Notes under the pieces: generated by a model
What the model saw: the letters and a program-made list of their open reading frames with translations, nothing else
What the model was told of the DNA's origin: nothing
Database searches by the model: none
Translations under genes and position numbers: made by a program
Part shown: positions 1 through 31,786 of the stretch, one piece after another
How positions within the stretch are numbered: position 1 is the stretch's first letter
Layout of the letters: every line of letters begins with the position of its first letter
IMG/VR virus record: IMGVR_UViG_3300015607_001184
Location: 4,082-68,081 of that record
Length of the DNA: 64,000 nucleotides
Strand: one strand, 5' to 3'
Source: a virus
Lineage: Duplodnaviria; Caudoviricetes

Positions 1-132
1 CTGCGTACCCCTACGACGACGGGACTGCGCTCACTGCTGAAGTCCCATGCCAACTCACCCGCGAGCGTGAACGGCTGACTTGTGCGAATCCGGCATATTG
101 CGCAAGGTTCTGGCGGCATCCGGAGCGCCTGC

Positions 133-2904
133 ATGTCTGCTGACCTCGACTACCGTCACTCCCGTCTTGGCCTTGGCCAACTGGTCCCCGGGACGGAGCA
201 GGGCGACGAGCCCGCCATGATCATCGACATGGGCGATCAGGGCATGGGCGAGGTCCAGAAGAAGCCGGGATCGTCCACCGTCAAGATCGAGCACCCTGAC
301 GGGACCATCACCATCGCCTTCGGGCAGGTGAAGCCAAAGCGCGAGAAGGTGGGCTGGTTCGACAATCTGGTCGACGACATCGACGACGATCAGCTGGGCA
401 TCATCGCCAACAGGCTGGTGACGGCGATCCAGTCCGACGACGACAGCCGCAAGCAGTGGCTGGAGGACCGGGCGAGGGGCATCGAGCTTCTGGGCCTGAA
501 GCTGAACACGCCACGCGGCGATCTGGCGGCCTCCACGACGCTTCTGGAGGGCATCTCGCAGGTCAACCATCCGCTGCTGCTGGAGGCGGTCCTGCGCTTT
601 CAGGCGAACGCGCGCGGCGAGATGCTGCCCACCGACGGACCGGTCAAAATCCGGGTCGACGACCTCAACACGCAGCAGGCGCAGGCGCAGGTGGGCCACA
701 ATGGCGGCCCGCCCATGGCCGAGGACGACGACAGCGAGGCGCAGCTGCTGGAGACGGCGCTGAACCACTACCTGACCGCCGTCGCCAAGGAGTATGTGCC
801 AGACACGGACCGCATGCTGTTCATGCTCGGCTTCGGCGGATGCACCTTCAAGAAGGTCTACAATTGCCCGATCCGGCGCCGCCCGGTCAGCGAATCGGTC
901 GACGCGGTCAACATCATCGTCTCCAACGCCACCACGACGCTGGCGAATTGCGGGCGCATCACCCACGAGGTGAACATGCGCCCGTCGATCCTGAAGCGCA
1001 TGCAGATCATCGGGGCCTACCGGGACATTGATCTCGGCTACAATTCACAGTCGACGCCGAACGCCGCGCAGGACGCCGCGAACAGCGTGCAGGGCATCGA
1101 GGTCGGCAACCAGCAGCCGGAAGACGCCGACCGCACGCTCTGGGAGTGCTACTGCGAGCTGGACATCCCGGGCTTCGAACACAAGCACAAGGGCAAGATC
1201 ACCGGCCTGCCACTGCCATACGTCGTCACCATTGACAAGCTGTCTCAGCAAATCCTGTCGATCCGTCGCAATTATGAGAGAGACGACGACATGGCGATGC
1301 CGAAGACGTATTTCGTCAAATACTCATTCGTGCCCGGCATGGGCTTCTATGATCTGGGCCTGCTGCACATCCTTGGGAACACGACGAGCGCTGCAACGGC
1401 GGCGTGGCGCGAAATGCTGGACGCTGGCATGTTCGCCTCGTTCCCGGGCTTCCTCTACGCCAAGTCGGCGGCCAAGCAGCGGACGAACCAGTTCCGGATC
1501 CCGCCGGGCGGCGGTATGCCCATCGAGACGAATGGCATGGCGATCTCCGACGCAGTGATGCCGTTGCCCTATCGCGAGCCCGGCCCGGCATCGATGCAGC
1601 TGGTTGATAACATCACGCAGATGGGCCAGCGCGTCGGAGGCACTGCGGAGATCAATGTCGGCGAGGGCCGTCAGGACGCGCCGGTGGGCACGACCATCGC
1701 CCTGATCGAGCAGGCGACGAAGGTGCTCGACGCCGTCCACAAGCGCATGCACGCCTCGCAGGCCGAGGAGTTCCAGCTGCTCAAAGAGCGCTTTCAGGAG
1801 GATCCCGAGGCGCTCTGGCGGTTCGACAGGAAGATGGCGTCGATCTGGGATAAGGAGCGCTTCCTCAACGCCCTCAACAATGTCGACCTCGTCCCGCAGG
1901 CCGACCCGAACACGTCGAGCCAGATGATGCGCGTCATGAAGGCGGTGGCCATCAAGCAGCTGCAGGCGCAGAACCCGAACCTCTACGACCCCATCGCGGT
2001 CGACACCCGGGTGCTCAAGGTCATCGGCGTCTCCAACCCGGAAGCGCTGTTCACGCAGAACCAGCAGCAGAACACCGATCCGAACGCCGCCAAGGCGCAG
2101 GCCCAGATGGCCACGGCGCAGATCAACGCCCAGCAGAAAGACAACGCCCACATCCGCGAGCTGGCTTTCAAGGCGTCCGAGGCCGACAAGGATCGCATGC
2201 TGCAGGTGCAGGCGCAGCAGGCCAAGGATGCCCTGTCGGGAGCCCAGCTGCAGCAGAAGGTCGAGAGCGACGAAAGGGCCCATGCGCTGTCTGCCGCGCA
2301 GCTGGAGTCCAGCCACGGGCTGGCGCAGGCCGACCTCGCGATCAAGGACAAGGGGCTCGCCCTCGCCGCCCAGCAGCACGCCCAGACCGTGCAGGCGCAG
2401 CAGGACAAGACCATGGCCGATGCCCAGACCAAGGTCTTCACCAACGTGCAGGACAACAACACCGCCCTCACGCTCAACCGGGAGAAGATCCAAGGCGAGC
2501 TGGCGCAGCAGTCGCAGCAGATCGAGCACGACAATCAGCAGGGCGAGGCGGACCGGCAGTTCCAAGCCTCCCAGCACCACGAGGATCTGGCCTATCAGGC
2601 GCACGAGAGCGAGCAGGCGCGCCAGCACCAGAGCCGCGAGGCCGCAGAGGACCGCAGGCACGGCATCCACACGGCCGAGATGGGCCATGCCGTGGACGCC
2701 GCCAAGACCTCCTCGCAGCGTGATTTCGAGCGCGAGAAGATGGACATCCAGCACCAGCACGGCATGGAGCAGACCCGCGTGACGCAGGACCACGAGGCCC
2801 GCGAGGCCAAGGAGGATCGCAAGATCGCGGCGAAGAAGATCAATCAGGGCGGTCTGAAGAACGGAAAGGGCCTCGGTCGCGGCCCCAACCCGAGCAAGCG
2901 CTGA
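133..2904 (+). CDS. Portal protein (P22-like podovirus type) with long Gln/His/Ala-rich C-terminal tail
   Basis: Motifs HPLLLEAVLRFQA, TDRMLFMLGFGGCTFKKVY, FVKYSFVPGMGFYDLGL, APVGTTIALIE typical of this portal family; ORF track starts at 82 (GTG), ATG 133 or 217 more likely. Confidence 0.9.
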   Translation: MSADLDYRHSRLGLGQLVPGTEQGDEPAMIIDMGDQGMGEVQKKPGSSTVKIEHPDGTITIAFGQVKPKREKVGWFDNLVDDIDDDQLGIIANRLVTAIQSDDDSRKQWLEDRARGIELLGLKLNTPRGDLAASTTLLEGISQVNHPLLLEAVLRFQANARGEMLPTDGPVKIRVDDLNTQQAQAQVGHNGGPPMAEDDDSEAQLLETALNHYLTAVAKEYVPDTDRMLFMLGFGGCTFKKVYNCPIRRRPVSESVDAVNIIVSNATTTLANCGRITHEVNMRPSILKRMQIIGAYRDIDLGYNSQSTPNAAQDAANSVQGIEVGNQQPEDADRTLWECYCELDIPGFEHKHKGKITGLPLPYVVTIDKLSQQILSIRRNYERDDDMAMPKTYFVKYSFVPGMGFYDLGLLHILGNTTSAATAAWREMLDAGMFASFPGFLYAKSAAKQRTNQFRIPPGGGMPIETNGMAISDAVMPLPYREPGPASMQLVDNITQMGQRVGGTAEINVGEGRQDAPVGTTIALIEQATKVLDAVHKRMHASQAEEFQLLKERFQEDPEALWRFDRKMASIWDKERFLNALNNVDLVPQADPNTSSQMMRVMKAVAIKQLQAQNPNLYDPIAVDTRVLKVIGVSNPEALFTQNQQQNTDPNAAKAQAQMATAQINAQQKDNAHIRELAFKASEADKDRMLQVQAQQAKDALSGAQLQQKVESDERAHALSAAQLESSHGLAQADLAIKDKGLALAAQQHAQTVQAQQDKTMADAQTKVFTNVQDNNTALTLNREKIQGELAQQSQQIEHDNQQGEADRQFQASQHHEDLAYQAHESEQARQHQSREAAEDRRHGIHTAEMGHAVDAAKTSSQRDFEREKMDIQHQHGMEQTRVTQDHEAREAKEDRKIAAKKINQGGLKNGKGLGRGPNPSKR

Positions 2905-3359
2905 TGCCTCGCGTTCTCATCTGCGGTGGCCGCACCTACGGATACATCCCGGCCTATCCGGAGCCCGGCCATGTCGAGGAGTGGCGTGCCGCCGTCCAGC
3001 GCGGGCAGAGGCAGCGTGACGCGCTTAACCACCGTCTCGACAGGCTGGTGAGCCGCTACGGGCCCGAGAACCTGACGATCATCCACGGCGCGGCGAGCGG
3101 GGCGGATGAGCTTGCCGGGGCATGGGCGCACGACAGCGGCATTGACGTGATCGCCTTTCCCATCACCGACGAGGAATGGGCGCGCTGGGGCAGGGCTGCA
3201 GGTCCCAAGCGCAACGCCCGCATGCTGCTGCAGGGCGAACCCGACCTCGTCATCGCCTTCGAAGGCGGCAAGGGCGCCCAGAACATGGTGCGTCTGGCGC
3301 GCGGCGCTGGCGTGACTGTCGATATCGTGGAGGCGGATCAATGCGCCGTGCTGACCTGA
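2904..3359 (+). CDS. YspA/DUF2493-like SLOG-fold protein
   Basis: RVLICGGR, IIHGAASGAD, GRAAGPKRNARML, PDLVIAFEGGKGAQNM; TGATG overlap with portal stop. Confidence 0.88.
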   Translation: MPRVLICGGRTYGYIPAYPEPGHVEEWRAAVQRGQRQRDALNHRLDRLVSRYGPENLTIIHGAASGADELAGAWAHDSGIDVIAFPITDEEWARWGRAAGPKRNARMLLQGEPDLVIAFEGGKGAQNMVRLARGAGVTVDIVEADQCAVLT

Positions 3360-6300
3360 ACGCATTGATGGACCGCTTGCGCCAGTCTTATGGCGACGAC
3401 GCGGCGCGGCGTGTCGAAAGGGCGGCTGACGAGGTCCATGGCCTCGACCAACGCTACACAGACACGGCCCTTCATCATGCATTTGCAGGTAACGCGGATT
3501 CGGCGCTGGTCGCCATGAAGCCCGGCGATTTCGAGAAATACGCGGCTCGCCTGCCCGAGAAGGGCTATCCGGATTACGGCTATTTCGACTGGGATACGGG
3601 CGCCGACCTCGATTACGACCAGTACATGGACTACCTCAACACGATTGAGCACAGGGGCGGTCTGTCGGACGTGCCGTTCCTCAATGTCGGCCACGAGGAA
3701 GGCGCGGACCTGCCTTATGTCGGGGCTCATGAGGGGCGCCATCGCATGCGCGCCATGGCCAAGGCAGGCAAGCCGACGGGCCTCGTCATGATCCGCCCGT
3801 CGGGACGGCTGGAGGAGAGCCTCCGGCACGGGCCGACCTATGAGACGGCCTACCGCGATTCCAACCAGAAAAGGCAGGCCCTGCTGGATCACCTCGCGGC
3901 GCATGACCGCATGGTCTACCCGCAGAAAGAACGCGACAGGCAGGACGACATTCGCGGCCCGGAGCAGCTTCCGGAGGCCTTTTCCAAAGGCGGGATCACT
4001 GGGAAGCCCTCGACAGTGAAGATTCCCGGCCACGGCGAGATCGCGGCCGACGAGATCCCCGAGGTGATGGCGGCCAAGCGCTCCTATATGGGACACCGCT
4101 TCGGCGACCCGCGTAAGGCGGACATCGACGGCTATACGCCATTCGACGAAGCGCACGCCCGCAAGATCGCCGAGGCCTACGAGGCCATGCAGCACGCCCC
4201 GCACGATCCGGCCGTGCGGCGCTCCTACGAAGCCATGATCGACGAGACGCTCGACCAGTACCACGCGCTCAGGAACGCCGGATACGACTTCCATTTCATG
4301 CGCGACGGCGAGCCTGACCCCTACGCGGAATCGCCCGCGCTGGGCTATCTCGACGCCAAGGATGGCCGCCTGACGGTGTTCCCGACCGATCAGGGCTACG
4401 GCATGTCCATGCTCCACAGCGAGGAGATGAACCCGCTGCTGAAGCGCGTCGGCCGCATCGGCGACCTCGACAACGCCACGGCCAACGACGCCTTCCGGGC
4501 GGTCCACGATATGTTCGGCCACCACGGCCCGGGCAACCCGTTCTTCCGCCACAAGGGCGAGGAGCGGGCGTGGGAAGCGCATTCCAGAATGTACTCCGAC
4601 GACGCGCTCCCGGCGATGACCTCGGAGACGCGCGGCCAGAACAGTTGGCTGAATTTCGGCCCGCACGAGGAGTACAACCGCACCGCCAACGGCGCCGACA
4701 CGATCTATGCCGAGCAGAAGGCAGGCCTGATGCCGGAGTGGACGTGGCGCCGCCACAGGCGCGCCGACGGGGGCTCGATCCCCGGCCGCGAGCTGAACGA
4801 GCTTGGCATGTACTCCAAGGCTCTGGAGGAGGCCAAGGCGATCAGGCAGCCCAAGGGCAAGCTGTCCGATTTCCTGCGCTATCTGAAGGGCGGGCTGGAG
4901 GAGTTCCGGCGTGGCGGGTGGGTGGATCGCGGTGGCTATGCCCGGGGCGGCATCGCCGACTATCAGGACGAACTCGACAGCGCCAACCGCATGATGAGCC
5001 CGGACGAGGAGGGGCTTCTGGCCTATCCGCGCGACCGCTACATTGACCCACACTACCGCGTGGGGGCGCTCAAGGGCTGGACCTTGAACCCGAACCTGAG
5101 GCAGGACAGGTTCCTCGACTACCCCAGCGTCAACGACGACATCGGGGCGCCCTACTTCAACGGCTGGAACGAGAACAAGGGGCGCTTCCGCAACTACGCC
5201 GACGGCGGTGCGGTCGAGCGTGAGCATTTCGAATTCGGCGGCTTTCAGGACAACTCTCGCCCCGGGCAGGCGGGCGACCCGGGTAACTGGGGAGCGTGGG
5301 GCAATGGCACGGAGGACGTGTCGGTACGCGATGCGCAGGCAGCCGGGCTGCGGGCGGGCCTGTCACGCGCCGAAGTGGCCTACGGGCAGGTTCCCGGAGG
5401 TCTTGGCTACCGTGGGGGCAGTGGCACGAGCCTGACGAACCTCCCCGAGCTGAGCGCTGCCAACCTTGCGCGCGCTGGTATCTTCAACCCCGGCGAGCGC
5501 CGGGTGTCAGGAAACCCGGCGGACGCGGCGACGGGCATGGCGCAGCCGGGATCCGTCCGCGAGGCTCTTGGGCTCGGCAAGATGCCCGAGCAGACCCAGA
5601 CGCCGGAGCAGGCGGTGCAGCAGGTTGAGGCGCAGCGCAGGCAGGCTGCCGCCGCTTCCGACCCTTCCGGCTTCAACGGGCTGGCTGGCGGCACGGTGGC
5701 GCTGGCGGCCTTCGGCGCGCTGCCCGGGCAGCACAAGCCCGGCGAGGACATGACGACGCCTGCCGACACAGGGTTCATGTCGACGCCCGAGCAGAACAGC
5801 TACAACCGGTTCATGGACACCGCCCGCAACACCTACATGGAGGCGGGGAACCAGAGCGACGAGGGCATGCTGGGTGTCGCCTTCTCGGCGCCGAACCGCA
5901 CCGCCATCAATTATGGCGGCATTGGCCCCGGGGGCATCGACACCACCGGCTACAACGACCCCAATGCCTCGTTCGACGAGAACGTGACGCGGAATATCTA
6001 CGCCCCCAAACAATACAGCTGGACGAACCCGGCCCTGAACAGAAAGACCGGCGTGGTGAATGTCGACCGCGCTCGCGACATCGCCGACGCCGAAATGGCC
6101 GGGGCGCCGGATCGTGCGCAGCGTGCCTATGCGGCTGCCTATGCGCAGCAGTTCGGAGGGGCGACGGACCCGACCTATGGCGCCGTGTCCTACCACGCCG
6201 ACTATGTCAGCCCGGCGTGGCGCCGGGACGCAGCTTCGCTGGGGACGCCCACGGTCATTGGCGACCACACCTTCTACGGCGGCAGCCCGCCCACGGCCAC

Positions 6301-7795
6301 GCAGGTGGCGGGCCCCGGCGCAGCAAGCGTCCTGTCCACCATGGCGGACCCGTGGGGCTTCTCGCACATGACGCCGGTGAACGATCTGGCTACGGCGCCG
6401 CTGTCGTGGACGGACCGCATCGGCGCGCCCCCGGCAACACCTCTCGGTTCCCCGCGCACGCCCACTCCCGCCTCTGCCTACAGCGTGGGGGAGGATGCCA
6501 CGCCTCTCGGCTCTCCGCGCACGCCGACCCCGGCCACGGCCTATGCCCCGGAGGGCGCCACGCGCACATGGGCGAACCCGATTTCGGTGCCCTATTCCGA
6601 CCCCGGCTTCGAGCGCCCGGGCTACGACATCTCGGTCTATCAGGGCGTCCCGCTGGCCGACATCACGCCGGTGCGTCCTTCCGCGCCGACGCTCACGGAG
6701 CAGGCCTACAACCCGCTGTCGTCGATTCGTGCACCTTCCGTTGTCGACCCGTTCACGGCGAGGAAGGTGCAAACCGAAAGGATCTCGCCGCCCTCCGAGG
6801 AGCCCAGCTACACCCGGGCGCCCTATCACGACACGGTCTACGATGCGCCTGCCGCGACGGCAGCCGCCGTGGCGCGGCGCATGGGATGGCACGACAGCGT
6901 CTACGACGCACCTTCGGCACAGGCATCGCCGCTTGGATCCCCCCGCACGCCGACGCCCGCCAGCGCCTATGCCAGCCCCGAAGCGGCCCCGGCTGCCCCG
7001 GTGGCGCGCCCGGCGGCGCCTTACGGAACGCGCGGGAACCCCCTTTCGGCCGCAGACATGGCTGCCGTCGGGCTCGGCGACGCGACACCGGCGCAGCTGC
7101 GCAGCTATCGCGCCGATATCCCGCGCGGGTCCATGATCAGCTCTGACTCTCCGTACTATGGCACCCGCAACAACCCGTTGTCGGACGCCGACATGGCGGC
7201 TGCAGGCCTTGGCGACGAGCAGTCCTTCTCGAAGAAGTACCTCGGCTTCCGGTCGAACGACGAGGTCGATGCCGACAACAAGCCCTACAAGGATCCCGAG
7301 ACTGGCCAGTGGGTCGATCCGCGTTTCTCGCGCACGCCCGTCGGCATGGCGGCTCTCGGCCTTCTTGGGCTCGGCCTGACCGCCGTCTCGCCGCCGCTGG
7401 GCATCGCCTACGGCCTGTCGGCGCTCATGGGCAAAAGCCCCCTCATCAATGGCGCTGACAGGCTGGCCAGCCGCTTCGGCTTCGACGGCCGCACGACGAC
7501 TACGGATCCCAATGCACCGAGCGCGTGGGGCAGCCTGAAGAGCGGCGTGCAGGGCCAGTCTTACGCGCCCGGCTATGATGGCGCCGGGACAGGGCGCTCG
7601 CTGTCATCGTTCAACGGCAATAGCGGTGGAAACGGCTACAGAATGTACGACCCCGTTCCCGGGCCCGTTGCGAATCCAATCGATGTGAAGTCCAAGAAGA
7701 AGGCAGCGGAACCGAAACCGGAACCGGTCAGGCCCTCCGATTGGAATGACATGGCCTCGTGGCAGCAGGAACTCTGGAGTGACACCTATGGCTGA
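3341..7795 (+). CDS. Large multidomain (polyvalent) virion/internal protein: ParB-like domain, HDxxGH domain, SleB-type cell wall hydrolase, repeat tail
   Basis: ATG 3341 with GGAGG upstream (track start 3176 too early); HEGRHR motif, RAVHDMFGH..GEE motif, EA..GM..V..NR / QYSW / D.TYGAVSYHA.YV.P.W / IGDHTFY hydrolase motifs. Confidence 0.75.
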   Translation: MRRADLNALMDRLRQSYGDDAARRVERAADEVHGLDQRYTDTALHHAFAGNADSALVAMKPGDFEKYAARLPEKGYPDYGYFDWDTGADLDYDQYMDYLNTIEHRGGLSDVPFLNVGHEEGADLPYVGAHEGRHRMRAMAKAGKPTGLVMIRPSGRLEESLRHGPTYETAYRDSNQKRQALLDHLAAHDRMVYPQKERDRQDDIRGPEQLPEAFSKGGITGKPSTVKIPGHGEIAADEIPEVMAAKRSYMGHRFGDPRKADIDGYTPFDEAHARKIAEAYEAMQHAPHDPAVRRSYEAMIDETLDQYHALRNAGYDFHFMRDGEPDPYAESPALGYLDAKDGRLTVFPTDQGYGMSMLHSEEMNPLLKRVGRIGDLDNATANDAFRAVHDMFGHHGPGNPFFRHKGEERAWEAHSRMYSDDALPAMTSETRGQNSWLNFGPHEEYNRTANGADTIYAEQKAGLMPEWTWRRHRRADGGSIPGRELNELGMYSKALEEAKAIRQPKGKLSDFLRYLKGGLEEFRRGGWVDRGGYARGGIADYQDELDSANRMMSPDEEGLLAYPRDRYIDPHYRVGALKGWTLNPNLRQDRFLDYPSVNDDIGAPYFNGWNENKGRFRNYADGGAVEREHFEFGGFQDNSRPGQAGDPGNWGAWGNGTEDVSVRDAQAAGLRAGLSRAEVAYGQVPGGLGYRGGSGTSLTNLPELSAANLARAGIFNPGERRVSGNPADAATGMAQPGSVREALGLGKMPEQTQTPEQAVQQVEAQRRQAAAASDPSGFNGLAGGTVALAAFGALPGQHKPGEDMTTPADTGFMSTPEQNSYNRFMDTARNTYMEAGNQSDEGMLGVAFSAPNRTAINYGGIGPGGIDTTGYNDPNASFDENVTRNIYAPKQYSWTNPALNRKTGVVNVDRARDIADAEMAGAPDRAQRAYAAAYAQQFGGATDPTYGAVSYHADYVSPAWRRDAASLGTPTVIGDHTFYGGSPPTATQVAGPGAASVLSTMADPWGFSHMTPVNDLATAPLSWTDRIGAPPATPLGSPRTPTPASAYSVGEDATPLGSPRTPTPATAYAPEGATRTWANPISVPYSDPGFERPGYDISVYQGVPLADITPVRPSAPTLTEQAYNPLSSIRAPSVVDPFTARKVQTERISPPSEEPSYTRAPYHDTVYDAPAATAAAVARRMGWHDSVYDAPSAQASPLGSPRTPTPASAYASPEAAPAAPVARPAAPYGTRGNPLSAADMAAVGLGDATPAQLRSYRADIPRGSMISSDSPYYGTRNNPLSDADMAAAGLGDEQSFSKKYLGFRSNDEVDADNKPYKDPETGQWVDPRFSRTPVGMAALGLLGLGLTAVSPPLGIAYGLSALMGKSPLINGADRLASRFGFDGRTTTTDPNAPSAWGSLKSGVQGQSYAPGYDGAGTGRSLSSFNGNSGGNGYRMYDPVPGPVANPIDVKSKKKAAEPKPEPVRPSDWNDMASWQQELWSDTYG

Positions 7796-9467
7796 TCTCG
7801 GCAAGGGCATGAGGGACAGGGCTCGCCGCCTGACGGCTGACGAGAAGACCTCCGGAATGGTGACGGGGCCGGTGTGGGATAGCGAGGAGCCTGCTGGCCA
7901 GATGCCGAGCCGCTCCAAGTTCGCTCATGGCGGCAAGATCGCGATGGGCAAGAATGCAGCCAAGCGGCTTGACCAGTACGCCCGGGGCGGCGCGGTGAAG
8001 CGCAAGACCGGAAAGACCACGATCAACATCATCATCGGCGACAAGCAGGCCGCGCCACCGGCGCCACCGGCTGCCGTCGTGCCCCCTCCGATGCCTCCGA
8101 TGGCGCCGCCGATGGCGCCCCCCATTGACCCGACTGGCGGAGCCGGTCCCGGACCAGCAGCAATGCCGCCCGTCGGCCCGATGAATCGCGGAGGCTCCGT
8201 CGGCTTCAAGAAGGGCGGATGCGTGCGCCCCGGGCGCGCCTTCGGCGGGCGCACCGAGATCCGCTCGCAGGGGTCAGACCCGGAACCCGGAAAGAAGCAC
8301 CACAAGATTTCTGCCGCCAGCGCGCGTGGCCGCAAGGGCCTGAAGACAGGCGGATGCGCCGAACCTGACGCCGACGACCGACCGGCCCGCGTCAAGCGCT
8401 ACGCCGGTGGCCGTGTCGGCTATGACAGCGGCGGCGTTCTCATGGATGGGCCGCAGGAGGGCTACTACGAAGCCCCGGCATGGCTGCGCTGGCTGATGGG
8501 GCGCGGCGCGCAGGCCGCGCCGCAGGTCAACACCCGCGCCCCCTACCACGACACCGTCTATGACGCCCCTCCGCCGCCGCGCCCGCAGTACCTGCCGGAG
8601 AACTCGATGCGCCCGAGGCCCCCCACCATGCAGGGGCCTCAGACGGCGGTTCAGATGGCGGCCATCCGCGCTGCGCAGGAGGAGATGCTCCGCCGCGCTG
8701 CGGTCGCTGCCGCCGCCGCTAGGCAGCCGCCGCTGCCGTTGCGCCGCCCTGCTGACCTAGCGGCCAGCCCGTCCTTCATGCAGCGCTTCGTGTCTGGTCA
8801 GTGGACGGCACCGCAGATCGACACCGCGCGCACCTTCGCGCATGGCGGTCGCGTCGGGCGGGCTTTCGGTGGCCCGATGGGCTTCCCCGCCTCGGCGCAG
8901 TCCTCGTCCTCGTCCTCCACGTCGGCCTCGGCTGGCGGCGGGAACTGGGGCGGTGGATTCAGCAGACCGGCTCCGCAGATGCCGCAGGCCCCGCAGATGC
9001 CGCAGTACCAGCTGCAGGCTCCTCCGGGCTTCACCATGCAGAACATACCGACGCCTCCGGGCTGGACCGGACCGCAGATGCAGGCCCCGGTGTGGAACGG
9101 AATGCAAATTCCTCCGCAGATGCAGACGCCGCCGCAGATGCCGCAGATGTCCGCTCCGGGGCAGGGCGCCGTGCCAACGGGCGACCCGCAGGGCACGCCC
9201 ACGCAGGCCCAGCAGTTCGCCCAGCAGCTGATGGGCGGAGGGCGCAACTTTGCCCAGCAGGCCATGGCGCGCTGGGGGCAGGGCGCTCCGGGCATGGGCG
9301 CTGGGCGCTGGGGCGGCGGGCCCGGAAACTGGCACCGCCAGAGCGAAGTGCAGGGGTCTGGGGCGGCCCCGGGCGGGTTCAAGAAGGGCGGTGCCGTCCA
9401 CATGACCGCCGGATCCCGCAGCGGAGAGGGGCGGCTGCAGAAGGTGAAGCTGCAAAAAGGGTGCTGA
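7788..9467 (+). CDS. Low-complexity Pro/Gly/Gln/Met-rich protein with 11 xxxGG motifs, probable internal virion protein
   Basis: ATG 7788 with GGAG upstream, overlapping previous stop; composition and position in head module. Confidence 0.6.
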   Translation: MADLGKGMRDRARRLTADEKTSGMVTGPVWDSEEPAGQMPSRSKFAHGGKIAMGKNAAKRLDQYARGGAVKRKTGKTTINIIIGDKQAAPPAPPAAVVPPPMPPMAPPMAPPIDPTGGAGPGPAAMPPVGPMNRGGSVGFKKGGCVRPGRAFGGRTEIRSQGSDPEPGKKHHKISAASARGRKGLKTGGCAEPDADDRPARVKRYAGGRVGYDSGGVLMDGPQEGYYEAPAWLRWLMGRGAQAAPQVNTRAPYHDTVYDAPPPPRPQYLPENSMRPRPPTMQGPQTAVQMAAIRAAQEEMLRRAAVAAAAARQPPLPLRRPADLAASPSFMQRFVSGQWTAPQIDTARTFAHGGRVGRAFGGPMGFPASAQSSSSSSTSASAGGGNWGGGFSRPAPQMPQAPQMPQYQLQAPPGFTMQNIPTPPGWTGPQMQAPVWNGMQIPPQMQTPPQMPQMSAPGQGAVPTGDPQGTPTQAQQFAQQLMGGGRNFAQQAMARWGQGAPGMGAGRWGGGPGNWHRQSEVQGSGAAPGGFKKGGAVHMTAGSRSGEGRLQKVKLQKGC

Positions 9468-9671
9468 TTGATCACAGTCGACATTCGCTTCAGGCAGCTG
9501 CTTGAGCGGAGAATCGCCTCCCTTGTTGAGGAGGTGCGAGACAAGTTGGAGGCCGGTCTGCAGGAGAAGGAGTATCTCCAGCAGGTCGGCTTCTTGCGTG
9601 CTCTGAGGATGCTCTCAGAGGAAGACGGCCTTCTCGACGAAATCGAGACGGAGATACTGGAGGGAAGATGA
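9468..9671 (+). CDS. Hypothetical helical protein
   Basis: Fills gap between adjacent genes, coupled stop/start, protein-like composition. Confidence 0.65.
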   Translation: MITVDIRFRQLLERRIASLVEEVRDKLEAGLQEKEYLQQVGFLRALRMLSEEDGLLDEIETEILEGR

Positions 9672-10099
9672 GCGAAGTTTACGAGATAGGTGGCGGCGCC
9701 ATGCGCAAGGCCACGATGAAGATGCACCACGATGTCGATCCCAAGAAGGATCTTCTGGACAGGATTGGAGACATCAGTGAGATGGAATTGTTCCATAACC
9801 TGATCCTCGTCGCCATGTACGTCCGGCCGGAGAAGACGGCATCTGGCATCCACCTGCCCAATTCGGTCCGCAAGGAAGACGAGTATCAGGGCAAGGTCGG
9901 CCTCGTCCTGAAGGTCGGGCCGATGGCGTTCGTGGACGACGCGGTGAACTCGTTCGGCGGCATCAAGGTGTCGCCGGGGGAATGGGTAACCTTCCGCACG
10001 TCGGACGGCTTCCAGATCACCATCAACGGGGTGCTGTGCCGGATGCTGCAGGACTCGCACATCAAGACGCGCATTCCTGATCCAGACTACGTGTTCTAG
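9668..10099 (+). CDS. groES: GroES-like co-chaperonin
   Basis: PEKTASGIHLP mobile loop, GLVLKVGP, VSPGEWVTF..SDG, RMLQDSHI. Confidence 0.85.
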   Translation: MSEVYEIGGGAMRKATMKMHHDVDPKKDLLDRIGDISEMELFHNLILVAMYVRPEKTASGIHLPNSVRKEDEYQGKVGLVLKVGPMAFVDDAVNSFGGIKVSPGEWVTFRTSDGFQITINGVLCRMLQDSHIKTRIPDPDYVF

Positions 10100-12789: not shown

Positions 12790-13704
12790 ATGGCTGTCAA
12801 TCTTTCTGCCATCAAGGATCTCCTCCTCCCCGGCCTTCGCGGCATCACGGGGAAGTACGACCAGATCCCGACCCAGTACGACAAGCTCTTCGAGAAGTCG
12901 AAGTCGAACATGGCTCTGGAGCGCACCGCTGAGATGCGCTACCTCGGCCTCGCTGCCCTGAAGAACGAGGGCGGCCAGACCTACTTCGACAACAACGCCG
13001 GTGAGCGCTTCGTCTACAATCAGGAGCACACCGAGCTGGGTCTTGGCTACGCGATCACTCGCAAGGCCATCGACGACAACCTCTACAAGACCCAGTTCAA
13101 GCCGTCGAACCTTGGCCTGATGGAGTCCTTCGTGCAGACGAAGGAGATCCTCGGCGCCTCGATCTTCAACACGGCGACGACCTACAACTCCTCCTTCGGC
13201 GGCGACGGCAAGGCCCTGCTGGCGACGGACCACCCCATCGACGGCGGCACGTTCGCCAACAAGCCCACGACCGAGGTCGACCTCAACGAGGCCACCCTCC
13301 TGAACGGCATGCTGGCGATCCGCCAGAACATGAAGGATCAGGCGGGCCTCAAGATGTACGCCCGGGCGCGTAAGCTTGTGGTTCCTGTCGCTCTTGAGCC
13401 GGTTGCTGTACGTCTTACCAAGACTGAACTGCGCCCCGGCACTGCCGATAATGATGTCAATGCAATCCGCAGCGTATCGGGAGGCCTTCCCGAAGGTTAT
13501 ATCGTCTGCGATTTCTTGACGTCTAACTTCGCTTGGTTCCTTCTCACTACGGTGAAGGGGCTGATTTACATGGAGCGCGTAGCATTCGAAATGGACATGC
13601 AAGTGGACTTCACGACAGATAACCTGTTGGTGAAGGGCTACGAGCGGTACAGCTTCGGCTACTACAACCCGCGCGCTCTCTGGGGAACTTTTCCGACATC
13701 TTAG
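12790..13704 (+). CDS. Major capsid protein (Mu gpT-like family)
   Basis: LLLPGL, LGYAITRKAIDDNLY, GDGKALLATDHP, DLNEATL, KLVVPVALE, DFTTDNLLVKGYERYSFG; RBS GAGGAG; strong codon bias. Confidence 0.92.
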   Translation: MAVNLSAIKDLLLPGLRGITGKYDQIPTQYDKLFEKSKSNMALERTAEMRYLGLAALKNEGGQTYFDNNAGERFVYNQEHTELGLGYAITRKAIDDNLYKTQFKPSNLGLMESFVQTKEILGASIFNTATTYNSSFGGDGKALLATDHPIDGGTFANKPTTEVDLNEATLLNGMLAIRQNMKDQAGLKMYARARKLVVPVALEPVAVRLTKTELRPGTADNDVNAIRSVSGGLPEGYIVCDFLTSNFAWFLLTTVKGLIYMERVAFEMDMQVDFTTDNLLVKGYERYSFGYYNPRALWGTFPTS

Positions 13705-13727: not shown

Positions 13728-14228
13728 ATGCTCAATGCAGATCACCTCCGCAGCCTTCTGGACTACGACCGGGCCACGGGCGTCTTCGTGTGGAAGATGC
13801 CCGCTGGCCGCTACGGTCGCATTCCGGCTGGGACGCGCGCAGGCAGCTACACGAGCGCCGAGGGGTATGGCTACGTCACGATTGCGGGAAAGAGCTACCG
13901 CCTTTCCCGCCTCGCGTGGCTCTACGTCCATGGCGAGTGGCCGAAAGATCAGATCGACCACGTCAATGGCGATCCTTCCGACGACCGCATCGCCAACCTG
14001 CGCGAAGCGACACAGTTCCAGAACAAGGCGAATTGCAGGCGCTACGCCAACAATACGTCAGGGTTCAAGGGCGTCTCGCTCGACCGGTCAAAGGGCCTCT
14101 ACAGGGCCTACACGAACAAAGATGGCCGCCGGGTCTATCTCGGCCGCTATCGCACCCCTGAAGAGGCTCACGCGGCCTACGCCGCTGCGGCCATGTCCAT
14201 TCACCGCGATTTCGCGAGGTTCACATGA
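13728..14228 (+). CDS. HNH homing endonuclease with AP2-like C-terminus
   Basis: RLAWLYVHGEWP, IDHVNGDPSDDRIANLR, NNTSGFKGV, YLGRY.TPEEAHAAY. Confidence 0.9.
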   Translation: MLNADHLRSLLDYDRATGVFVWKMPAGRYGRIPAGTRAGSYTSAEGYGYVTIAGKSYRLSRLAWLYVHGEWPKDQIDHVNGDPSDDRIANLREATQFQNKANCRRYANNTSGFKGVSLDRSKGLYRAYTNKDGRRVYLGRYRTPEEAHAAYAAAAMSIHRDFARFT

Positions 14229-16973: not shown

Positions 16974-17954
16974 GTGCTCATCACGCACGCCAAGAGCCTG
17001 ACGGTATCACCGGCGACGGGCACGCTGACCATCTGGAACGGCGGCACGACATCGTCGATTGCCGCATCCGATGTCATCCAGCCGAACGACTGGAACTCGC
17101 AGCACGCGCTGTCGTTCGTCTTTGGCGGGAACACGACCAACATCTCATCGGTATCGGGAACGCAGGTTCCTTTTGCCGCGACTGGCGGCGTTTCCATCGG
17201 CGCAAGCAATGGGTCGCTGCTGATCTCGGCGCCGATAAATGTCACCGTGTCGACCTACTCCCCCTACTTCCCGGCATCGACCTCGTCGCAGACGCATGGG
17301 GCGATGGGGACCAGCACGGCGAGAGCTCTGGTTTTCCCAGTTCCTGTGTACCAAGACGTTGCGTTCAATGCTCTCCGGATCATTCAATCCGCATCATATG
17401 TCACGTCTACCGTCTCTGGAAGGCAGACGATCACGTCTGCTTATGGCATCTATAGCAACAATGGCGGCACTCTAAGCCTTATATCGTCAGGATCGCATTC
17501 CATTGCGATGACGGTATCATCCGTCAGCGCGACAATATCTCTTCCGACATCTTCAAATTCTGCCGGATACACATACGGAAGCGTCTCGATCACGGCTACC
17601 GCGCAAGGCCAATCCCTGATCGGGACGGCCGGGAACCGCGTTGCCGATCTCGTCTTCGGCAACACGCTCAGCCTGTCTCCGGGCATCTACTGGGTGGGCG
17701 TTCATCAGAGGCAAAGCTCCTCGTCTGCGAACGTCGGTATCTCGACCGCTCTTGTCGGAAACGCCATGAACGCCACGAGCGGCGTCGGGCCAATGGGCTC
17801 GTCAACGGCGGCGTTTACGAATAATTCGGCCTATCACCTCGGCGCGCACGGCTTCTACACAGCTACCAGCACCACGCTGCCTTCTGCGATGTCGCTCACG
17901 GGTGTATCAAATGCCGTGAACGTCATGCCGATGATCACTCTCTTGAGCACCTGA
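16974..17954 (+). CDS. Ser/Thr-rich virion protein (tail appendage candidate)
   Basis: GTG start; P.DWNSQH N-terminal motif; very S/T-rich; 3' two-thirds with atypical codon usage. Confidence 0.6.
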   Translation: MLITHAKSLTVSPATGTLTIWNGGTTSSIAASDVIQPNDWNSQHALSFVFGGNTTNISSVSGTQVPFAATGGVSIGASNGSLLISAPINVTVSTYSPYFPASTSSQTHGAMGTSTARALVFPVPVYQDVAFNALRIIQSASYVTSTVSGRQTITSAYGIYSNNGGTLSLISSGSHSIAMTVSSVSATISLPTSSNSAGYTYGSVSITATAQGQSLIGTAGNRVADLVFGNTLSLSPGIYWVGVHQRQSSSSANVGISTALVGNAMNATSGVGPMGSSTAAFTNNSAYHLGAHGFYTATSTTLPSAMSLTGVSNAVNVMPMITLLST

Positions 17955-18670
17955 TGAAGCCAGAACTCGTCATGCTCTCCCCCTCCGGGCGCAACAACGA
18001 GGGGATCGAAGAGTCCTTCCAGCGCATCCTTGAGGGGGCGACGTGGAAGAAGCAGCGCGTGATCGTCATCATCCCGGCGGGAAAGGACATCCCGACGAAG
18101 GTGGCGCTCAGCCATTGGAACCTGATCTTCCCGCCCAACCAGCCCGTTGCCAAGCTGGCGGCCATCGGCATGGAGGTTGGGCAGGCATACTCTCTGGCCA
18201 TCGAGAGCGTGCTCAATCACTCGGAACTCTCGCAGTGGGAGTTCATCCTGACGGTGGAGCATGACAATGCGCCCCCGGCGGACGGCGTTCTGCAGCTGAT
18301 CAGGCAAATGGAGGCTCACCCGGAGTTTGCCTGCATCGGAGGCCTGTACTGGACGAAGGGGGAGGGCGGCGTGCCCCAGATCTGGGGCGACCCAGCGGAC
18401 CCCGTCCTCAACTTCCGGCCGCAGGCGCCGCGCCCCGGCGAGCTGCAGGAGTGCAATGGCACCGGCATGGGATTCAATTTGTGGCGCATTTCGATGTTCA
18501 AGGACGAGCGCATTGCCCGCCCGTGGTTCACCACCAAGGCCAGCATCGAGGGTGTCGGGACGCAGGATCTGGCCTTCTGGTCGGAGGCGAAGAAGCACGG
18601 CTACCGGTGCGCCATCGATAACTCCGTTCTGGTCGGGCATTGGGAAAAAGAGCGGGGGATCATGTGGTGA
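17954..18670 (+). CDS. GT-A fold (family 2-like) glycosyltransferase
   Basis: ILTVEHD (DxD-like), GTGMGFNLW, PWF, TQDLAFW..A..GY..AID.SV.VGH. Confidence 0.8.
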   Translation: MKPELVMLSPSGRNNEGIEESFQRILEGATWKKQRVIVIIPAGKDIPTKVALSHWNLIFPPNQPVAKLAAIGMEVGQAYSLAIESVLNHSELSQWEFILTVEHDNAPPADGVLQLIRQMEAHPEFACIGGLYWTKGEGGVPQIWGDPADPVLNFRPQAPRPGELQECNGTGMGFNLWRISMFKDERIARPWFTTKASIEGVGTQDLAFWSEAKKHGYRCAIDNSVLVGHWEKERGIMW

Positions 18671-19219: not shown

Positions 19220-20872
19220 GTGCCGATCAGCCTTGTTCAAAGGGGGTCTGAGGGGCGGCAGGCTGGCGTAAGCAGCGTCACGTCCGTCTTCTCGGCGAAC
19301 CCGGCTGTCGGCAGCAAAATCATCGTCACGGTGGCGATGTGGAACAGCGTGGCTGGCGTCACCGGATCCGTCGCAGACAATTACAGCAACACCTATACCC
19401 AACGCTCCTTCATCGCCAACACCGACAATGGGCGGCTGGAGATCTGGGAGGCCGATGTCACAACGACCGGGGCGACCTTCACGGTCACCCTGACCGCTTC
19501 CCTAAGCTCCAGCGAAATGAACTGCGTGGCGCTGGAATATAGCGGCGTCGGGTCATTCGACCTGCAGGCGACGAATAACGTCGCGGCAGCCGGGACATCG
19601 ATCAGCGTCGGCCCGACCGCGAACCTAGCCAACGACGAATCGCTGGCGGTGACGCTGGCCACCGAACTCGGCAACAGCAACGCCGCCTATCAGACACCGT
19701 CCACTTTCACGACGATCATCATCCAGAACGACAGCTCGACCGTCTATTCATACGGATCGGCCTACCAGATCACGCAATCGGCCGTCCCGCTCAACCCGAC
19801 GTGGACGATGACCAACCAGACCGACAGGGCGTGCATTCTGGCGGTCTTCTCGCGCGGCCCGGCTACCTACAACGTTTCGATCACGGAGAATATCGGGGCG
19901 ATCTACGAGACGCTGGGGCTCTATGGCGCCACGCTTGGCCAACCATGGCAGCCCAACGCTTTCGGCATCTTCCCTCAGGCCACAGGCGGCACGATCTTCA
20001 ACGTCTCGATCTCCGAGAGCATCGGGACGATTGCCGAGACGATCACCAATACGGCAGTGTTTCAGGTATCGCTTTCCGAGCCCATCGGCACCATCGCCGA
20101 AAGCCAGAGCAACACCGGGACGTTCGGCCATTCGATCAGCGAGCCCATCGGGACGATTTCCGAAACGCAGTCGGCGCAGGCGTCGTTCGCGTCCTCCCTC
20201 ACGGAGAACATCGGCACCATCGCAGAGAGCGCGCAGGGCGCGGCCACCTATCAGGTGACGATCTCCGAGCCCATCGGCACCATCGCAGAGACGGTCGCCA
20301 GCGGGTCGCTGTACTCGGTCACCATCACCGAAAGCGTCGGCACCATCGCCGAAACACAGACCGGGCCAGCCACCTTCGCCTCGTCCGTCACTGAGAACGT
20401 CGGGTCCATCGCCGAGAGCCAGAGCAACACCGGCAGCTTCAATCATTCCGTGTCCGAATCGATTGGTACGGTGGCCGAGACGCAGACATCTCAGGCCGTC
20501 TTCGCGTCGGCTGTGAGCGAGGCGGTCGGCACCATCGCCGAGACGCAGACGGGCCCGGCCACCTTCCAGAGCGCGGTGACGGAGGGCGTCGGCACCATCG
20601 CCGAGACGCAAACCGCGCAGGCCTCTTTCTCGTCTTCCGTGAGCGAGAGCATCGGATCCATCGCCGATGCCGTGGCCGTCGCGGGCGGCAGCGTGTTCAA
20701 TGTCACCATCACCGAAAGCATGGGCGTCATCACCGACACGACCAACGCGACAGGCGGCGGCGGGTCAACTTCGTTCTACGAACTGGGAGGCGACACGGTG
20801 ACAGAGAAATATCTGCCCGCCGAGACGCTGCAGCAGCCCGACTATCTGCTTAAGAAGACGCGGGGGACCTAG
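19220..20872 (+). CDS. Tail/appendage protein with 13 imperfect 21-aa repeats
   Basis: N-terminal beta domain then repeats of type F.xSISEPIGTIAETQ. Confidence 0.7.
   Translation: MPISLVQRGSEGRQAGVSSVTSVFSANPAVGSKIIVTVAMWNSVAGVTGSVADNYSNTYTQRSFIANTDNGRLEIWEADVTTTGATFTVTLTASLSSSEMNCVALEYSGVGSFDLQATNNVAAAGTSISVGPTANLANDESLAVTLATELGNSNAAYQTPSTFTTIIIQNDSSTVYSYGSAYQITQSAVPLNPTWTMTNQTDRACILAVFSRGPATYNVSITENIGAIYETLGLYGATLGQPWQPNAFGIFPQATGGTIFNVSISESIGTIAETITNTAVFQVSLSEPIGTIAESQSNTGTFGHSISEPIGTISETQSAQASFASSLTENIGTIAESAQGAATYQVTISEPIGTIAETVASGSLYSVTITESVGTIAETQTGPATFASSVTENVGSIAESQSNTGSFNHSVSESIGTVAETQTSQAVFASAVSEAVGTIAETQTGPATFQSAVTEGVGTIAETQTAQASFSSSVSESIGSIADAVAVAGGSVFNVTITESMGVITDTTNATGGGGSTSFYELGGDTVTEKYLPAETLQQPDYLLKKTRGT
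19867..20750 (+). repeat. Coding tandem repeat array, mostly 63-nt period
   Basis: Recurring ggcaccatcgccga(g/a)acg core; 13 peptide units counted by eye. Confidence 0.85.
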
Positions 20873-20916: not shown

Positions 20917-21594
20917 ATGGCGGTCAGCGGAACGATCACGTTCAACCCCACGATGGCAGATTGCACGGTCAATGCTTTCGGGCGGCTGCTCATCAGGGCC
21001 GACCAGCTGACGCCGCAGCATCTGCGCGACGCGCGGTTCGAAGCCAACCTCCTGTGCCAGACGTGGCAGCAGAAGGGCGTCAACCTGTGGACCGTGGAGC
21101 TGCAGACCCTGACAACCGTGCAGGGCACGGCAACCTATACGCTGGCGGCCGGGACGATCAGCCTGCTCGACACCTACATCACGGCTGAAGGGCAGGACAT
21201 GGTGCTGCCGCCCGTCTCGCGCACCGACTATGCAAGTCAGCCGAATAAGACTCAGCAGGGGCGCCCGAACATGATGTGGGTGAACCGGCAGTCGCCGACG
21301 CCCACCATGACCCTGTGGCCGACCCCTGATGCGGCCTACGTCATCAGCTACTACCGCCTGCGGCAGCTGTACGACGTGAACCTCGACAGCACCGGCAACC
21401 CCGACGTGCCGCTGCGCTTCACCGACGCCTTCATCTCCGACCTGTCATGGCGGCTGTCGCGCCTGTGGCGCCCGGACCTTGAGGACAAGCGCAAGCAGGA
21501 CGCCATGGACTCGTGGAACCTTGCCTCCGGCGACGATGTCGAAGAGGGCATCCAGATGTTCATCTCGCCGTCCATCGGGGCCTACTTTCCATGA
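20917..21594 (+). CDS. Head-tail adaptor/connector protein
   Basis: MAVSGTITF, WQQKGVNLWT, QGRP..W..RQ....LWPTPD, DVP.RF.DA; RBS GAGGAG. Confidence 0.7.
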   Translation: MAVSGTITFNPTMADCTVNAFGRLLIRADQLTPQHLRDARFEANLLCQTWQQKGVNLWTVELQTLTTVQGTATYTLAAGTISLLDTYITAEGQDMVLPPVSRTDYASQPNKTQQGRPNMMWVNRQSPTPTMTLWPTPDAAYVISYYRLRQLYDVNLDSTGNPDVPLRFTDAFISDLSWRLSRLWRPDLEDKRKQDAMDSWNLASGDDVEEGIQMFISPSIGAYFP

Positions 21595-22391: not shown

Positions 22392-23030
22392 ATGGCGATG
22401 GACTACAACACCTACCTGACCCGTCTGGCGGCCATGGCGACCGCCTCGACGACCGACACCAAGTTCACGACCATCGTGCCAGCGGTCATCGACTATGCCG
22501 AGCAGCGCATGTATCGCGAGCTGCAGCTCGTCTCGACGCAGTCGCGCAATCAGGCCGGGCTCACGTCGTCCGGCGTCCGGACTTTCAATTTCCCGACACG
22601 CTTCGTCATCGCCGAGGCGATAAACCTGATCATCTCCAGCCAGCGCTTTCCGCTGATGCCAGCCAGCCGGGAATTCATCGACTTCGTGTACGGCACGGCA
22701 TCGAACGGCGTCCCGGTCTATTACGCTATGGAGACGGACCAGAGCATCTCTCTGGGGCCCACCCCGAACGGCGCCTATACGGTCGAGATCGTCGGCAGGG
22801 TCCGCCCCACGCCCCTGTCGTCCGGAACGCCGAACACCTTCCTGACGGACTACCTCCCGGACGCCTTCCTCGCCTGCTCGATGATCTTCTATTCGGGCTT
22901 CCAGAAGAATTTCGCGGCGCAGTCATCCAACCCGCAACAGGGCACCAGCTGGGAGGACCAGTACACGAAACTGATGGCCTCGGCGCAGGTCGAGGAATTG
23001 CGCAAGCGCTTCACCCAAGCGCCGCAGTGA
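22392..23030 (+). CDS. Tail adaptor/tubular protein
   Basis: IDYAEQRMYREL, GVPVYYA, LGPTPNGAYTVE, TFLTDYLPDAFL; position before hub. Confidence 0.65.
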   Translation: MAMDYNTYLTRLAAMATASTTDTKFTTIVPAVIDYAEQRMYRELQLVSTQSRNQAGLTSSGVRTFNFPTRFVIAEAINLIISSQRFPLMPASREFIDFVYGTASNGVPVYYAMETDQSISLGPTPNGAYTVEIVGRVRPTPLSSGTPNTFLTDYLPDAFLACSMIFYSGFQKNFAAQSSNPQQGTSWEDQYTKLMASAQVEELRKRFTQAPQ

Positions 23031-28029: not shown

Positions 28030-28512
28030 ATGGTCGACTACGCCACAGAGGTCCGTCTCGCGGTCCAGTCCGACGAAGAGGACATCATGGTCCTGTGCCG
28101 GTTACTCCACAAGGAGAACGGCCTGTGGACGCTCAACGAGCAAAAGGTGCGCCATATGCTTCGGCGCGCGTGGCGTAAAGAATTTGCCATTGTCGGAATT
28201 GTCGGGAAACCCGGCGCCCTTGAGGGCATGATCTTGCTGGTGCTCGACCAGCCTTGGTACTCGGACGACTGGATGCTTGAGGAGATGCTCAACTACGTTC
28301 ACCCGGAGCATCGCAAGTCGGGCCACGCGAAGCGCCTTGTCGAGTTCGCGAAGAAGACATCGGAGGGGCTTGGTATCCCTCTGATGATCGGCATCATCTC
28401 AAATGAGCGCACGGAAGCGAAGGTAAAGCTGTACCAGCGGCAACTGGGAAGCCCGGCTGGAGCCTTCTTTGTCTACGGAGCCCGAACGGGCGACGTGGGG
28501 GCGGAGCACTGA
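28030..28512 (+). CDS. GNAT-fold acetyltransferase preceding ejection proteins
   Basis: PWYSDDWMLEE..YVHPEHRKSGHAKRLVEFAK acetyl-CoA motif A. Confidence 0.75.
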   Translation: MVDYATEVRLAVQSDEEDIMVLCRLLHKENGLWTLNEQKVRHMLRRAWRKEFAIVGIVGKPGALEGMILLVLDQPWYSDDWMLEEMLNYVHPEHRKSGHAKRLVEFAKKTSEGLGIPLMIGIISNERTEAKVKLYQRQLGSPAGAFFVYGARTGDVGAEH

Positions 28513-28513
28513 C

Positions 28514-31500: not shown

Positions 31501-31786
31501 GCAGCGCCTTATGGCGTCGCTGGAGGTGCAGTCACAGCGCATGATCGACATGCAGCGCTTCCGCGAGCAATGGGCGCGGGGGACCGGCGGCGACCTGACC
31601 GGCGCCGACAGCTACTTCAACCAGAAGCGGCCACCTTCCTACTACGCCCGCAAGACGGTGCTCCTGTCGGTGCCGCAGCCCGCCATCGCCGAACTGATGG
31701 CCGACCCCACCCCGTCCAAGATGCGTATCTTTGACAGCCATTTCGGCGCTGGGACTGCCCGACTTATCGTGACAGGGGGGCATTGA
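28514..31786 (+). CDS. DNA ejection/pilot protein with internal S74-type autocleavage domain and lysozyme-like domain
   Basis: TTTVTQ..IPDYLK, YMNPYQ, GAWGG.R, Q.PYQQLGFLSN; LSDRRAKKDI..YKFKYK..GFMADEVEK..P.AV; AIESGGRY..AYGRYQVM. Confidence 0.78.
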   Translation: MGSKSSKPTTTVTQAGIPDYLKKNYETLTKAATKLATQPFNPYKGEMVAGLTAAQEQAIARMGEIQGIGDPYFQAGADALSKVGQFTDKALEYGDKALTYTDKGSQYGATAAEIAGDLRNTQITPIEWSQEQLDKYMNPYQAEVIRATMGNIAENNAQQMQGLIGNAISKGAWGGDRAGIAQAAMARQQDLAANQTLAQLNAQNYQQAMAQFNVQQQVDLQRQQANAALKAQAGGMYTGLGGLQAQLGGVTGQLGSMAAQLGQVQAGVGSAYGSLGTGISQAAINQAMGLLQAGTVEQQTNQAYDNAQYQEFMRRQQFPYQQLGFLSNIYYGLPATNTGTSSTYAPAPSMGSQIGGALLTGLGALSDRRAKKDIEGLGQLNGHNLYKFKYKGDPDEREQVGFMADEVEKTHPEAVSVRPDGLKQVNYALAMAAKSADEVTRQKRAFGGGLGVMDDPSFDPTAGGFSGVEMPLDRLARARAATSAIESGGRYDALGPMVKGDRAYGRYQVMGKNIPSWTEMYAGRRMTPDEFRADKGAQDAVYNGRMGMYLDKYGPEGAARAWFTGSPTGKGSDGYTSADDYASRFMKGYNGGNADIPRGEEASYTPPASANDGSDFKGGLGWFDKPGLLTGDMMSGDIRMGLMQAGAAMMASKSPYAGQAIGEGLQSGLGAYAELQEKRRRDALAQSQIAHSKGALGLAERRLSAEVPEIEARTAELKQRTAAERWDIRPGLTGWQVIDRTNPQAGAVMVPFGGRFPDGTKAPPAPAGASPAGGGGAGGAPTSPPASPAPTAPAATTDPTSESGNHYDPITGNVRPGLPQDGFAPPPARSEPGITEMDHNGNRYLSDEPDDLAQPEQYPTNPQAFNPEAQPGLLAAGREQLMAGQEAAEKAQQAKITAQNMREAMSILNSNRFTKGGANFEERLALVKKINMIANLMGKQAPYQNEEAAANSLQKDTFRMGMQALQSLAGGQREAGFMQQAGIGAVPNGEQNGLGQQRLMASLEVQSQRMIDMQRFREQWARGTGGDLTGADSYFNQKRPPSYYARKTVLLSVPQPAIAELMADPTPSKMRIFDSHFGAGTARLIVTGGH

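Follow-up and report, generated by a model that had tools for sequence, protein, structure and literature searches.

In a 64,000-nucleotide stretch of phage DNA (hereafter the window; positions 4,082 to 68,081 of the Caudoviricetes record IMGVR_UViG_3300015607_001184, a 68,081 bp IMG/VR virus rated complete, with 64% G+C), two adjacent genes carry the same short peptide, which is a real, selected and lineage-restricted motif under purifying selection. The first gene, open reading frame 1 (ORF1; 3341–7795, plus strand), encodes a predicted portal-adjacent polyvalent virion protein of 1484 residues with a low-complexity C-terminal tail, and the second, ORF2 (7788–9467, plus strand), encodes a low-complexity GG-motif protein of 559 residues. 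An earlier note on this DNA had reported an identical 13-residue peptide in the two genes, with seven synonymous and no non-synonymous differences, and had taken this as a sign of selection on the peptide. Translation of the frames 3176–7795 and 7746–9467 yields TRAPYHDTVYDAP from both, with coordinates and frames correct and 13/13 residues the same, and a recount agrees that 7/13 codons differ, all at the third position.

The motif copies all lie on the plus strand. Copy B1 (TRAPYHDTVYDAP; 6812–6850) occupies residues 1158–1170 of 1484 in the ORF1 tail and is of the subtype RAPYHDTVY, and copy B3 (TRAPYHDTVYDAP; 8532–8570) occupies residues 249–261 of 559 in ORF2, within a linker prone to insertions and deletions. 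A variant copy that the earlier note did not include, B2 (RRMGWHDSVYDAP; 6875–6913; subtype RMGWHDSVY), lies 21 residues past B1 in ORF1 (residues 1179–1191 of 1484), across an unrelated linker of 9 residues. The silent codon pairs between B1 and B3 (CGG/CGC, GCG/GCC, TAT/TAC, ACG/ACC, TAC/TAT, GAT/GAC and GCG/GCC) differ by one base each, and the flanks of these two copies are unrelated from the first residue beyond the 13-mer. The consensus is R-x-[GP]-[YW]-H-D-[STN]-V-Y-[DNS]-[AS]-P, of which all 11 copies seen in this phage and its relatives keep R, H, D, V, Y and the closing P. The 68-kb genome holds exactly three copies by a degenerate pattern (zero by the reversed-pattern control), and relaxed protein patterns run over its six frames returned nothing else motif-like, the only other match being short, unrelated and on the opposite strand. 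Among 46 plausible ORFs compared, this is the only exact peptide of at least 7 residues common to different proteins of the phage. The rare proline codon CCT (8% usage) closes all three window copies (6848–6850, 6911–6913 and 8568–8570). A DNA-level signal behind the peptide identity was considered and rejected; the B1 copy of a near-identical contig ends in CCA rather than CCT, so the CCT ending is probably no such signal.

The expected number of exact 13-mers common to the two proteins by chance is ~9e-10, and 200 shuffles of the proteins gave longest common strings of 4–7 residues. Silent changes make up 26% of the possible single-base changes in the peptide, so that seven silent changes out of seven have P ~7e-5 under neutrality. 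Identical codons between B1 and B3 number 6/13, against 6.1 +/- 1.75 expected for independent draws from phage codon usage; codon identity is therefore at the random level, the silent sites are saturated, and no DNA-level trace of common origin is left.

Comparison with related sequences points the same way. The single twin contig in IMG/VR shares 96.8% DNA identity over 6350–9467, with 77 silent and 24 replacement changes. Within the motifs its changes are mostly silent: B3 is unchanged, as it also is in the contigs compared from public sequencing runs, and B2 carries R to Q and S to N replacements, reading QRMGWHDNVYDAP. When the ORF1 tail was searched exhaustively with HMMER over 1.84 billion representatives, its own cluster and P0006 were all that was recovered. 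P0006 and its full-length cluster mate P0007 are sister orthologues of ORF1 with the same tail plan, extra inserted modules, and a Phage_lysozyme2 lysin domain where ORF1 has Hydrolase_2. The sister tail contains five tandem copies of the motif (RAGYHDSVYSAP, RMGWHDSVYDAP, RAPYHDTVYNAP, RSPYHDSVYDAP and RAPYHDSVYSSP) at a spacing of 15 or 18 residues. B2 is identical to the second of these (RMGWHDSVYDAP) at 12/12 positions, in a tail that as a whole is only 47% identical, and B1 aligns with the third (VRAPYHDTVYNAP); the subtypes RMGW...S and RAPY...T are found in both lineages. Selection on the peptide, as the earlier note proposed, is thus borne out by saturated silent sites with no replacements, by the mostly silent motif changes in the twin and by retention of the motif in the sister ORF1.

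The distribution of the motif in ORF2 is narrower. The diverged orthologue of ORF2, P0003 (53% identity), retains every GG motif, and we infer that P0003 and P0007 belong to one phage. MW202675.1, a more distant relative, has its polyvalent modules spread over three genes and a shorter ORF2 homologue; GG motifs are present there and the [YW]HD motif is absent. The earlier suggestion that the peptide is a second signal common to both GG-motif proteins therefore applies to this lineage only, since it is missing from P0003 and MW202675.1; similarly, conservation in relatives, on which the note had staked its reading, is seen in the intact B3 of the twin and in the sister ORF1, and fails in the sister ORF2 orthologue. 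As far as these sequences indicate, the motif is primarily an ORF1-tail repeat, carried by ORF2 in this lineage only.

The protein that carries most of the copies has the features of a polyvalent protein. The ORF1 start at 3341 agrees with the called protein P0004 and with the N-terminus of the sister P0007. Its central domain is phrog_3170, and its DNA matches among GenBank phages are short, confined to this domain, and fall in genes annotated as 'large polyvalent protein' (in Planktothrix phage Pag-Yong1) and 'lysin'. A SleB-type cell-wall hydrolase domain (Pfam Hydrolase_2; 5966–6277, plus strand; P0004 residues 876–979) scores 27.7 bits, barely above the cut-off of 27. It is followed by the low-complexity, repeat-bearing tail of ~350 residues, by a hydrophobic hairpin and by a conserved C-terminal end. 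The hairpin, a putative membrane segment (7334–7420, plus strand; residues ~1332–1360) identified by Kyte-Doolittle values of at least 1.4 in 19-residue windows starting at residues 1332–1341, is also present in the sister orthologue. Two other classes of repeat share the tail, both on the plus strand: class A, PLGSPRTPTPA[ST]AY, in three copies (6437–6481, 6500–6544 and 6926–6970), and class C, YGTRxNPLSxADMAAxGLGD, in two (7019–7081 and 7154–7216). Their peptides are conserved with scrambled silent sites (in class A, 8/20 codons are silently different in each pair), and each class is partly retained in the sister orthologue. The N-terminal domain of ORF1 (3341–3900) contains HEGRHRMRAM, conserved in the sister, which we take to resemble the catalytic motif of ParB/DdrB-type domains, a likeness to which library matches gave no support. 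A DdrB-type ParB domain has been described in polyvalent proteins (Iyer et al., PMC5512222).

For ORF2, the start at 7788 (MADLGKGM) was set by homology to P0003; it overlaps the stop of ORF1 (ATGGCTGA) and has GGAG upstream. Searches of Pfam and PHROG families gave no match to ORF2, tblastn against GenBank phages found no homologue, no named cluster related to it was found in the ESM Atlas, and a search for a hydrophobic segment was negative. Its ESM Atlas model has a mean predicted local distance difference test score (pLDDT) of 0.41. The disordered context that the earlier note ascribed to both copies is plausible and weakly tested, with low-complexity composition and low pLDDT for ORF2 (ESM Atlas) and for the ORF1 tail (AlphaFold2, AF2). 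The [FY]-x-x-G-G-x-[VI] motifs found across 3341–9467 do not vary from ORF2 to P0003 and occur again in MW202675.1 (16184–24846), where one separate polyvalent-module gene stops three residues past a GG motif (...HARGGVAK). A role of the GG motifs in marking module boundaries would fit this arrangement.

Searches for the peptide beyond these relatives, as the earlier note had suggested, covered IMG/VR, prokaryote genomes, Joint Genome Institute (JGI) metagenomes and protein collections, and gave only the twin and chance-level matches, the sister ORF1 being reached by HMMER. In IMG/VR the 97–98% twin was the only relative found, whether the scan used the motif itself, the portal, ORF2 or P0003; three further matches to an HDRVYDAP pattern there were dismissed, their frames being full of stops. 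In the JGI metagenomes, alignment of ORF2 found no relative, and the one match to the motif pattern, outside any listed ORF, was taken as chance. A 46-residue segment around the motif, searched against the longer entries (up to 2000 residues) of a set of 5.8 billion proteins, matched only itself and the twin; in that search ORF2 itself fell short of E <=10. Among prokaryotes (one genome for each of 185,579 species) a single match was obtained, on contig CAZUJU010000023.1 (3868–4296) of a Thiotrichales metagenome-assembled genome. It lies in a predicted membrane protein of 142 residues that carries DDWHDTVYDAP near its C-terminus, followed by 8 residues, and the gene downstream is of the radical-SAM type, biotin-synthase-like by eye. 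This match is probably due to chance, as rough arithmetic expects a few such matches. Pfam at E up to 1 gave no match for the motif region, nor for P0007 outside its lysin domain, and sequence matches to the motif region in the PDB were all unrelated, with E >0.4. The motif thus matches no known structural tandem-repeat family, either by curated repeat model or by solved repeat structure.

The two genes lie in the head module, where the gene order is portal, ORF1 polyvalent protein, ORF2, GroES-like protein and major head protein. The portal (82–2904, plus strand; phrog_1216) is 55% identical to that of MW202675.1 and 28–33% identical to its counterparts in Pelagibacter, Roseobacter, Caulobacter and Planktothrix/Synechococcus phages. 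A small gene between it and ORF1 (2904–3359) encodes a SLOG-family protein by family match, the Cpn10-like (GroES-like) protein lies at 9668–10099, and the major head protein gene (12790–13704) is directly followed by a free-standing HNH endonuclease (13728–14228; phrog_99, E 3e-62). Further along are a structural-module protein of 550 residues with ~9 tandem 21-residue repeats (SEPIGTIAE[ST]Q...; 19220–20872; without a family in Pfam or PHROGs), a pair of paralogous SU10-type adaptors (20917–21594 and 22392–23030; Pfam PF24175), a protein with matches both to a PHROG 'DNA ejection protein' family and to a tail-fibre chaperone domain (Peptidase_S74; 28469–31786), a tail-collar fibre (34893–35804) and the large terminase (58251–59927). 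The adaptor pair places the tail among those of SU10-like podoviruses. Fragments of the window type and contigs of the twin type (~3% apart in DNA over 6350–9467) occur in wastewater, activated-sludge and river runs from 11 studies (2016–2025), none of the runs listed being of RNA; four runs were compared in detail. The runs richest in these sequences belong to a single study, and one of them may have supplied the DNA of the window.

Our preferred reading is that the peptide is a short linear motif of 12–13 residues for multivalent docking to one shared partner, and we consider this reading about evenly balanced between right and wrong. Each copy would be an independent docking site read by one common folded partner, the number of copies (two or five in ORF1, one or none in ORF2) would set the binding strength of each protein, and ORF2 of this lineage would have come to bind the partner already used by the ORF1 tail. 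Selection on the peptide, the lack of a match to it in Pfam or the PDB and its standing as the only such peptide common to different proteins of the phage speak for this reading. The similarity stops exactly at 13 residues, which a self-contained motif would be expected to show, and the variable copy number together with the lone copy in ORF2 suggests independent units rather than a multi-repeat fold. Between the lineages the variable linkers and even the lysin domain differ while the motif subtypes persist, in a setting of overlapping head-module genes and flexible low-complexity linkers in an uncultured SU10-type wastewater podovirus. As to how ORF2 acquired the peptide, a short patch of B1 may have been duplicated into ORF2, far enough back for silent sites to have become saturated. 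B3 matches B1 down to the first Thr (Val in the sister), and the sister ORF2 has no copy. The simplest account is a copying of the patch between the two genes of this lineage once it had separated from the sister; the direction was presumably from B1 to ORF2, and loss in the sister is the alternative. The partner is most likely a component of the virion or of the ejection complex, with the portal, the inside of the capsid and other ejected proteins as candidates, since the gene order and the precedent of T4 capsid targeting fit. Alternatively it could be a host envelope protein met after ejection, given that the ORF1 tail has a wall hydrolase on one side and a membrane hairpin on the other.

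Several points weigh against docking to a shared partner. In P0003 the peptide-bearing segment is swapped for unrelated sequence with gaps, so ORF2 must be able to fill its basic role without the motif, and only this lineage has a copy in ORF2; P0003 and the diverged ORF1 orthologue have nothing in common beyond GG motifs and low-complexity stretches. The repeats of the sister are nearly contiguous and might also make up a small structural array. AF2, run on ORF1 residues 851–1484 with an alignment of three sequences, gave an uninformative model with a mean pLDDT of 28.7 and ~25–29 in the tail. The case for conservation consists of two diverged lineages and a near-identical twin, that is, few independent sequences, because the databases hold only two diverged lineages. 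The presence of ORF1 and ORF2 in the virion is deduced from gene order and homology, and we infer both the partner and the binding from sequence.

That the motif has no function of its own, the identity being either a chance match or what remains of a recent duplication or conversion between the two genes, seems to us very improbable. The agreement of B1 and B3 even at the first Thr does suggest common descent, as this explanation would have it, but the silent-site data (identical codons at the random level with no replacements) contradict a recent event of either kind, the motif is conserved in the sister lineage, and the chance expectation for the match is ~1e-9. Alternatively, the motif might be a structural or self-associating unit, for example a metal-binding Tyr/His/Asp site or a zipping strand, that links ORF1 to ORF2 or ORF1 to itself. 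This is an unlikely account in our view, and the nearly contiguous array of the sister (12-residue units with linkers of 3 or 6 residues) and the presence of Tyr, His and Asp among the invariant residues speak for it; the copy in ORF2, however, is single and isolated, the unrelated 9-residue linker parts B1 from B2, AF2 with its shallow alignment gives no structure, and no Pfam repeat family was found. Cleavage or modification of the motif is also less likely, and we would place it somewhat below a structural unit: the motif would then be a covalent processing site, either for a protease or for modification of Ser/Thr, such as glycosylation at D-[ST]-V. The Bacteroidota O-glycosylation sequon is D-[ST]-[AILVMT] in a protein exposed outside the cytoplasm, and D-T-V or D-S-V, which fit it, occur in 3/3 window copies and 5/5 sister copies, with D-N-V in twin B2. 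Against such processing stand the Asn at the Ser/Thr position in twin B2, a conserved span of 12 residues that far exceeds such sequons, and a G+C content of 64% with alphaproteobacterial and cyanobacterial phage kin, which do not indicate a Bacteroidota host. No Pfam glycosyltransferase call was obtained at 17954–18670. Tandem sites 15–18 residues apart are implausible for cleavage, and PHROGs and Pfam detected no prohead protease in the ORFs from portal to major head protein, several of which are without any family.

A host envelope protein could instead recognise the motif once ejection has taken place. The tail would then act like the unstructured translocation domain of a colicin, its short boxes capturing a host protein of the periplasm or inner membrane and so helping to build or energise a channel for DNA delivery, and ORF2 would bear the same handle. 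We regard this as improbable, to much the same degree as a structural unit. In its favour, the order of hydrolase, motif-rich tail and membrane hairpin is kept in both lineages despite the exchange of the lysin, the variable linkers of the ORF1 tail contain several classes of conserved short boxes, and the alternating residues of H-D-S-V-Y might suit strand addition. Conserved short boxes in an unstructured segment of an envelope-crossing protein are known from colicins, whose TolB and TonB boxes serve as the comparison. The PROSITE pattern for the TonB box is [DENF]-[ST]-[LIVMF]-[LIVSTEQ]-V-x-[AGP]-[STANEQPK], which D-T-V-Y-D-A-P violates at two positions, the fourth (Tyr) and the fifth (Asp), and there is no resemblance to the TolB box. 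The single chance-level match in 185,579 prokaryote species gives no sign of mimicry of a host protein, and the reading presupposes a tail that reaches the periplasm. One specific form of this idea, which we would give only a slim chance, is that the ORF1 tail is colicin-like and unstructured, that its [YW]HD[ST]VY boxes capture either a host envelope protein or the portal or ejection channel of the phage, and that one box was copied onto a second ejected protein as a common handle.

As for the docking reading, a short peptide common to virion proteins is of a kind already known. In cargo loading more generally, encapsulin targeting peptides and the repeats of carboxysome CsoS2 are short repeated motifs in disordered chains that dock cargo on the inner surface of HK97-like or other shells, with copy number tuning the binding; they have no sequence similarity to the motif, and docking to the capsid would here be an analogy. 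The internal proteins of T4 have as their only common element a short capsid-targeting sequence (CTS; PMC3012670). The CTS of T-even phages, found on injected proteins of the head interior (IPI, IPII, IPIII and Alt), and the motif are alike as short conserved peptides on otherwise unrelated proteins, here two, both presumed to be packaged. The CTS, however, is N-terminal, present in a single copy and removed by the prohead protease, while the motif is unrelated in sequence, is internal (ORF1 residues 1158–1170 and 1179–1191; ORF2 residues 249–261) and occurs in one to five copies. Iyer, Burroughs, Anand, de Souza and Aravind (2017; PMC5512222) describe polyvalent proteins as effectors that travel inside the head and are injected along with the DNA. 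With Hydrolase_2, phrog_3170 and matches to genes annotated as polyvalent, ORF1 fits this group, and like its members it is a very large multidomain protein near the portal with a peptidoglycan-cleaving domain. The passages of PMC5512222 consulted treat only globular domains and processing by peptidases, and the words 'linker', 'low-complexity' and 'disordered' do not appear in the paper; the motif-rich tail of ORF1 has one diverged relative among the 1.84 billion representatives.

The value of the finding is limited by the fact that the phage is uncultured and its clade tiny, with two lineages in public data. The loading of the internal proteins of podoviruses and the ordering of their ejection are poorly understood, and a selected, repeated peptide on two such proteins offers a handle on these processes. 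The peptide can be synthesised as bait for its partner, and its copy number can be varied. If the motif proves to be a packaging signal, it could serve as a cargo-loading tag for foreign proteins, and if the colicin-like version were true, it would represent an undescribed peptide code that orders or energises protein ejection in podoviruses.

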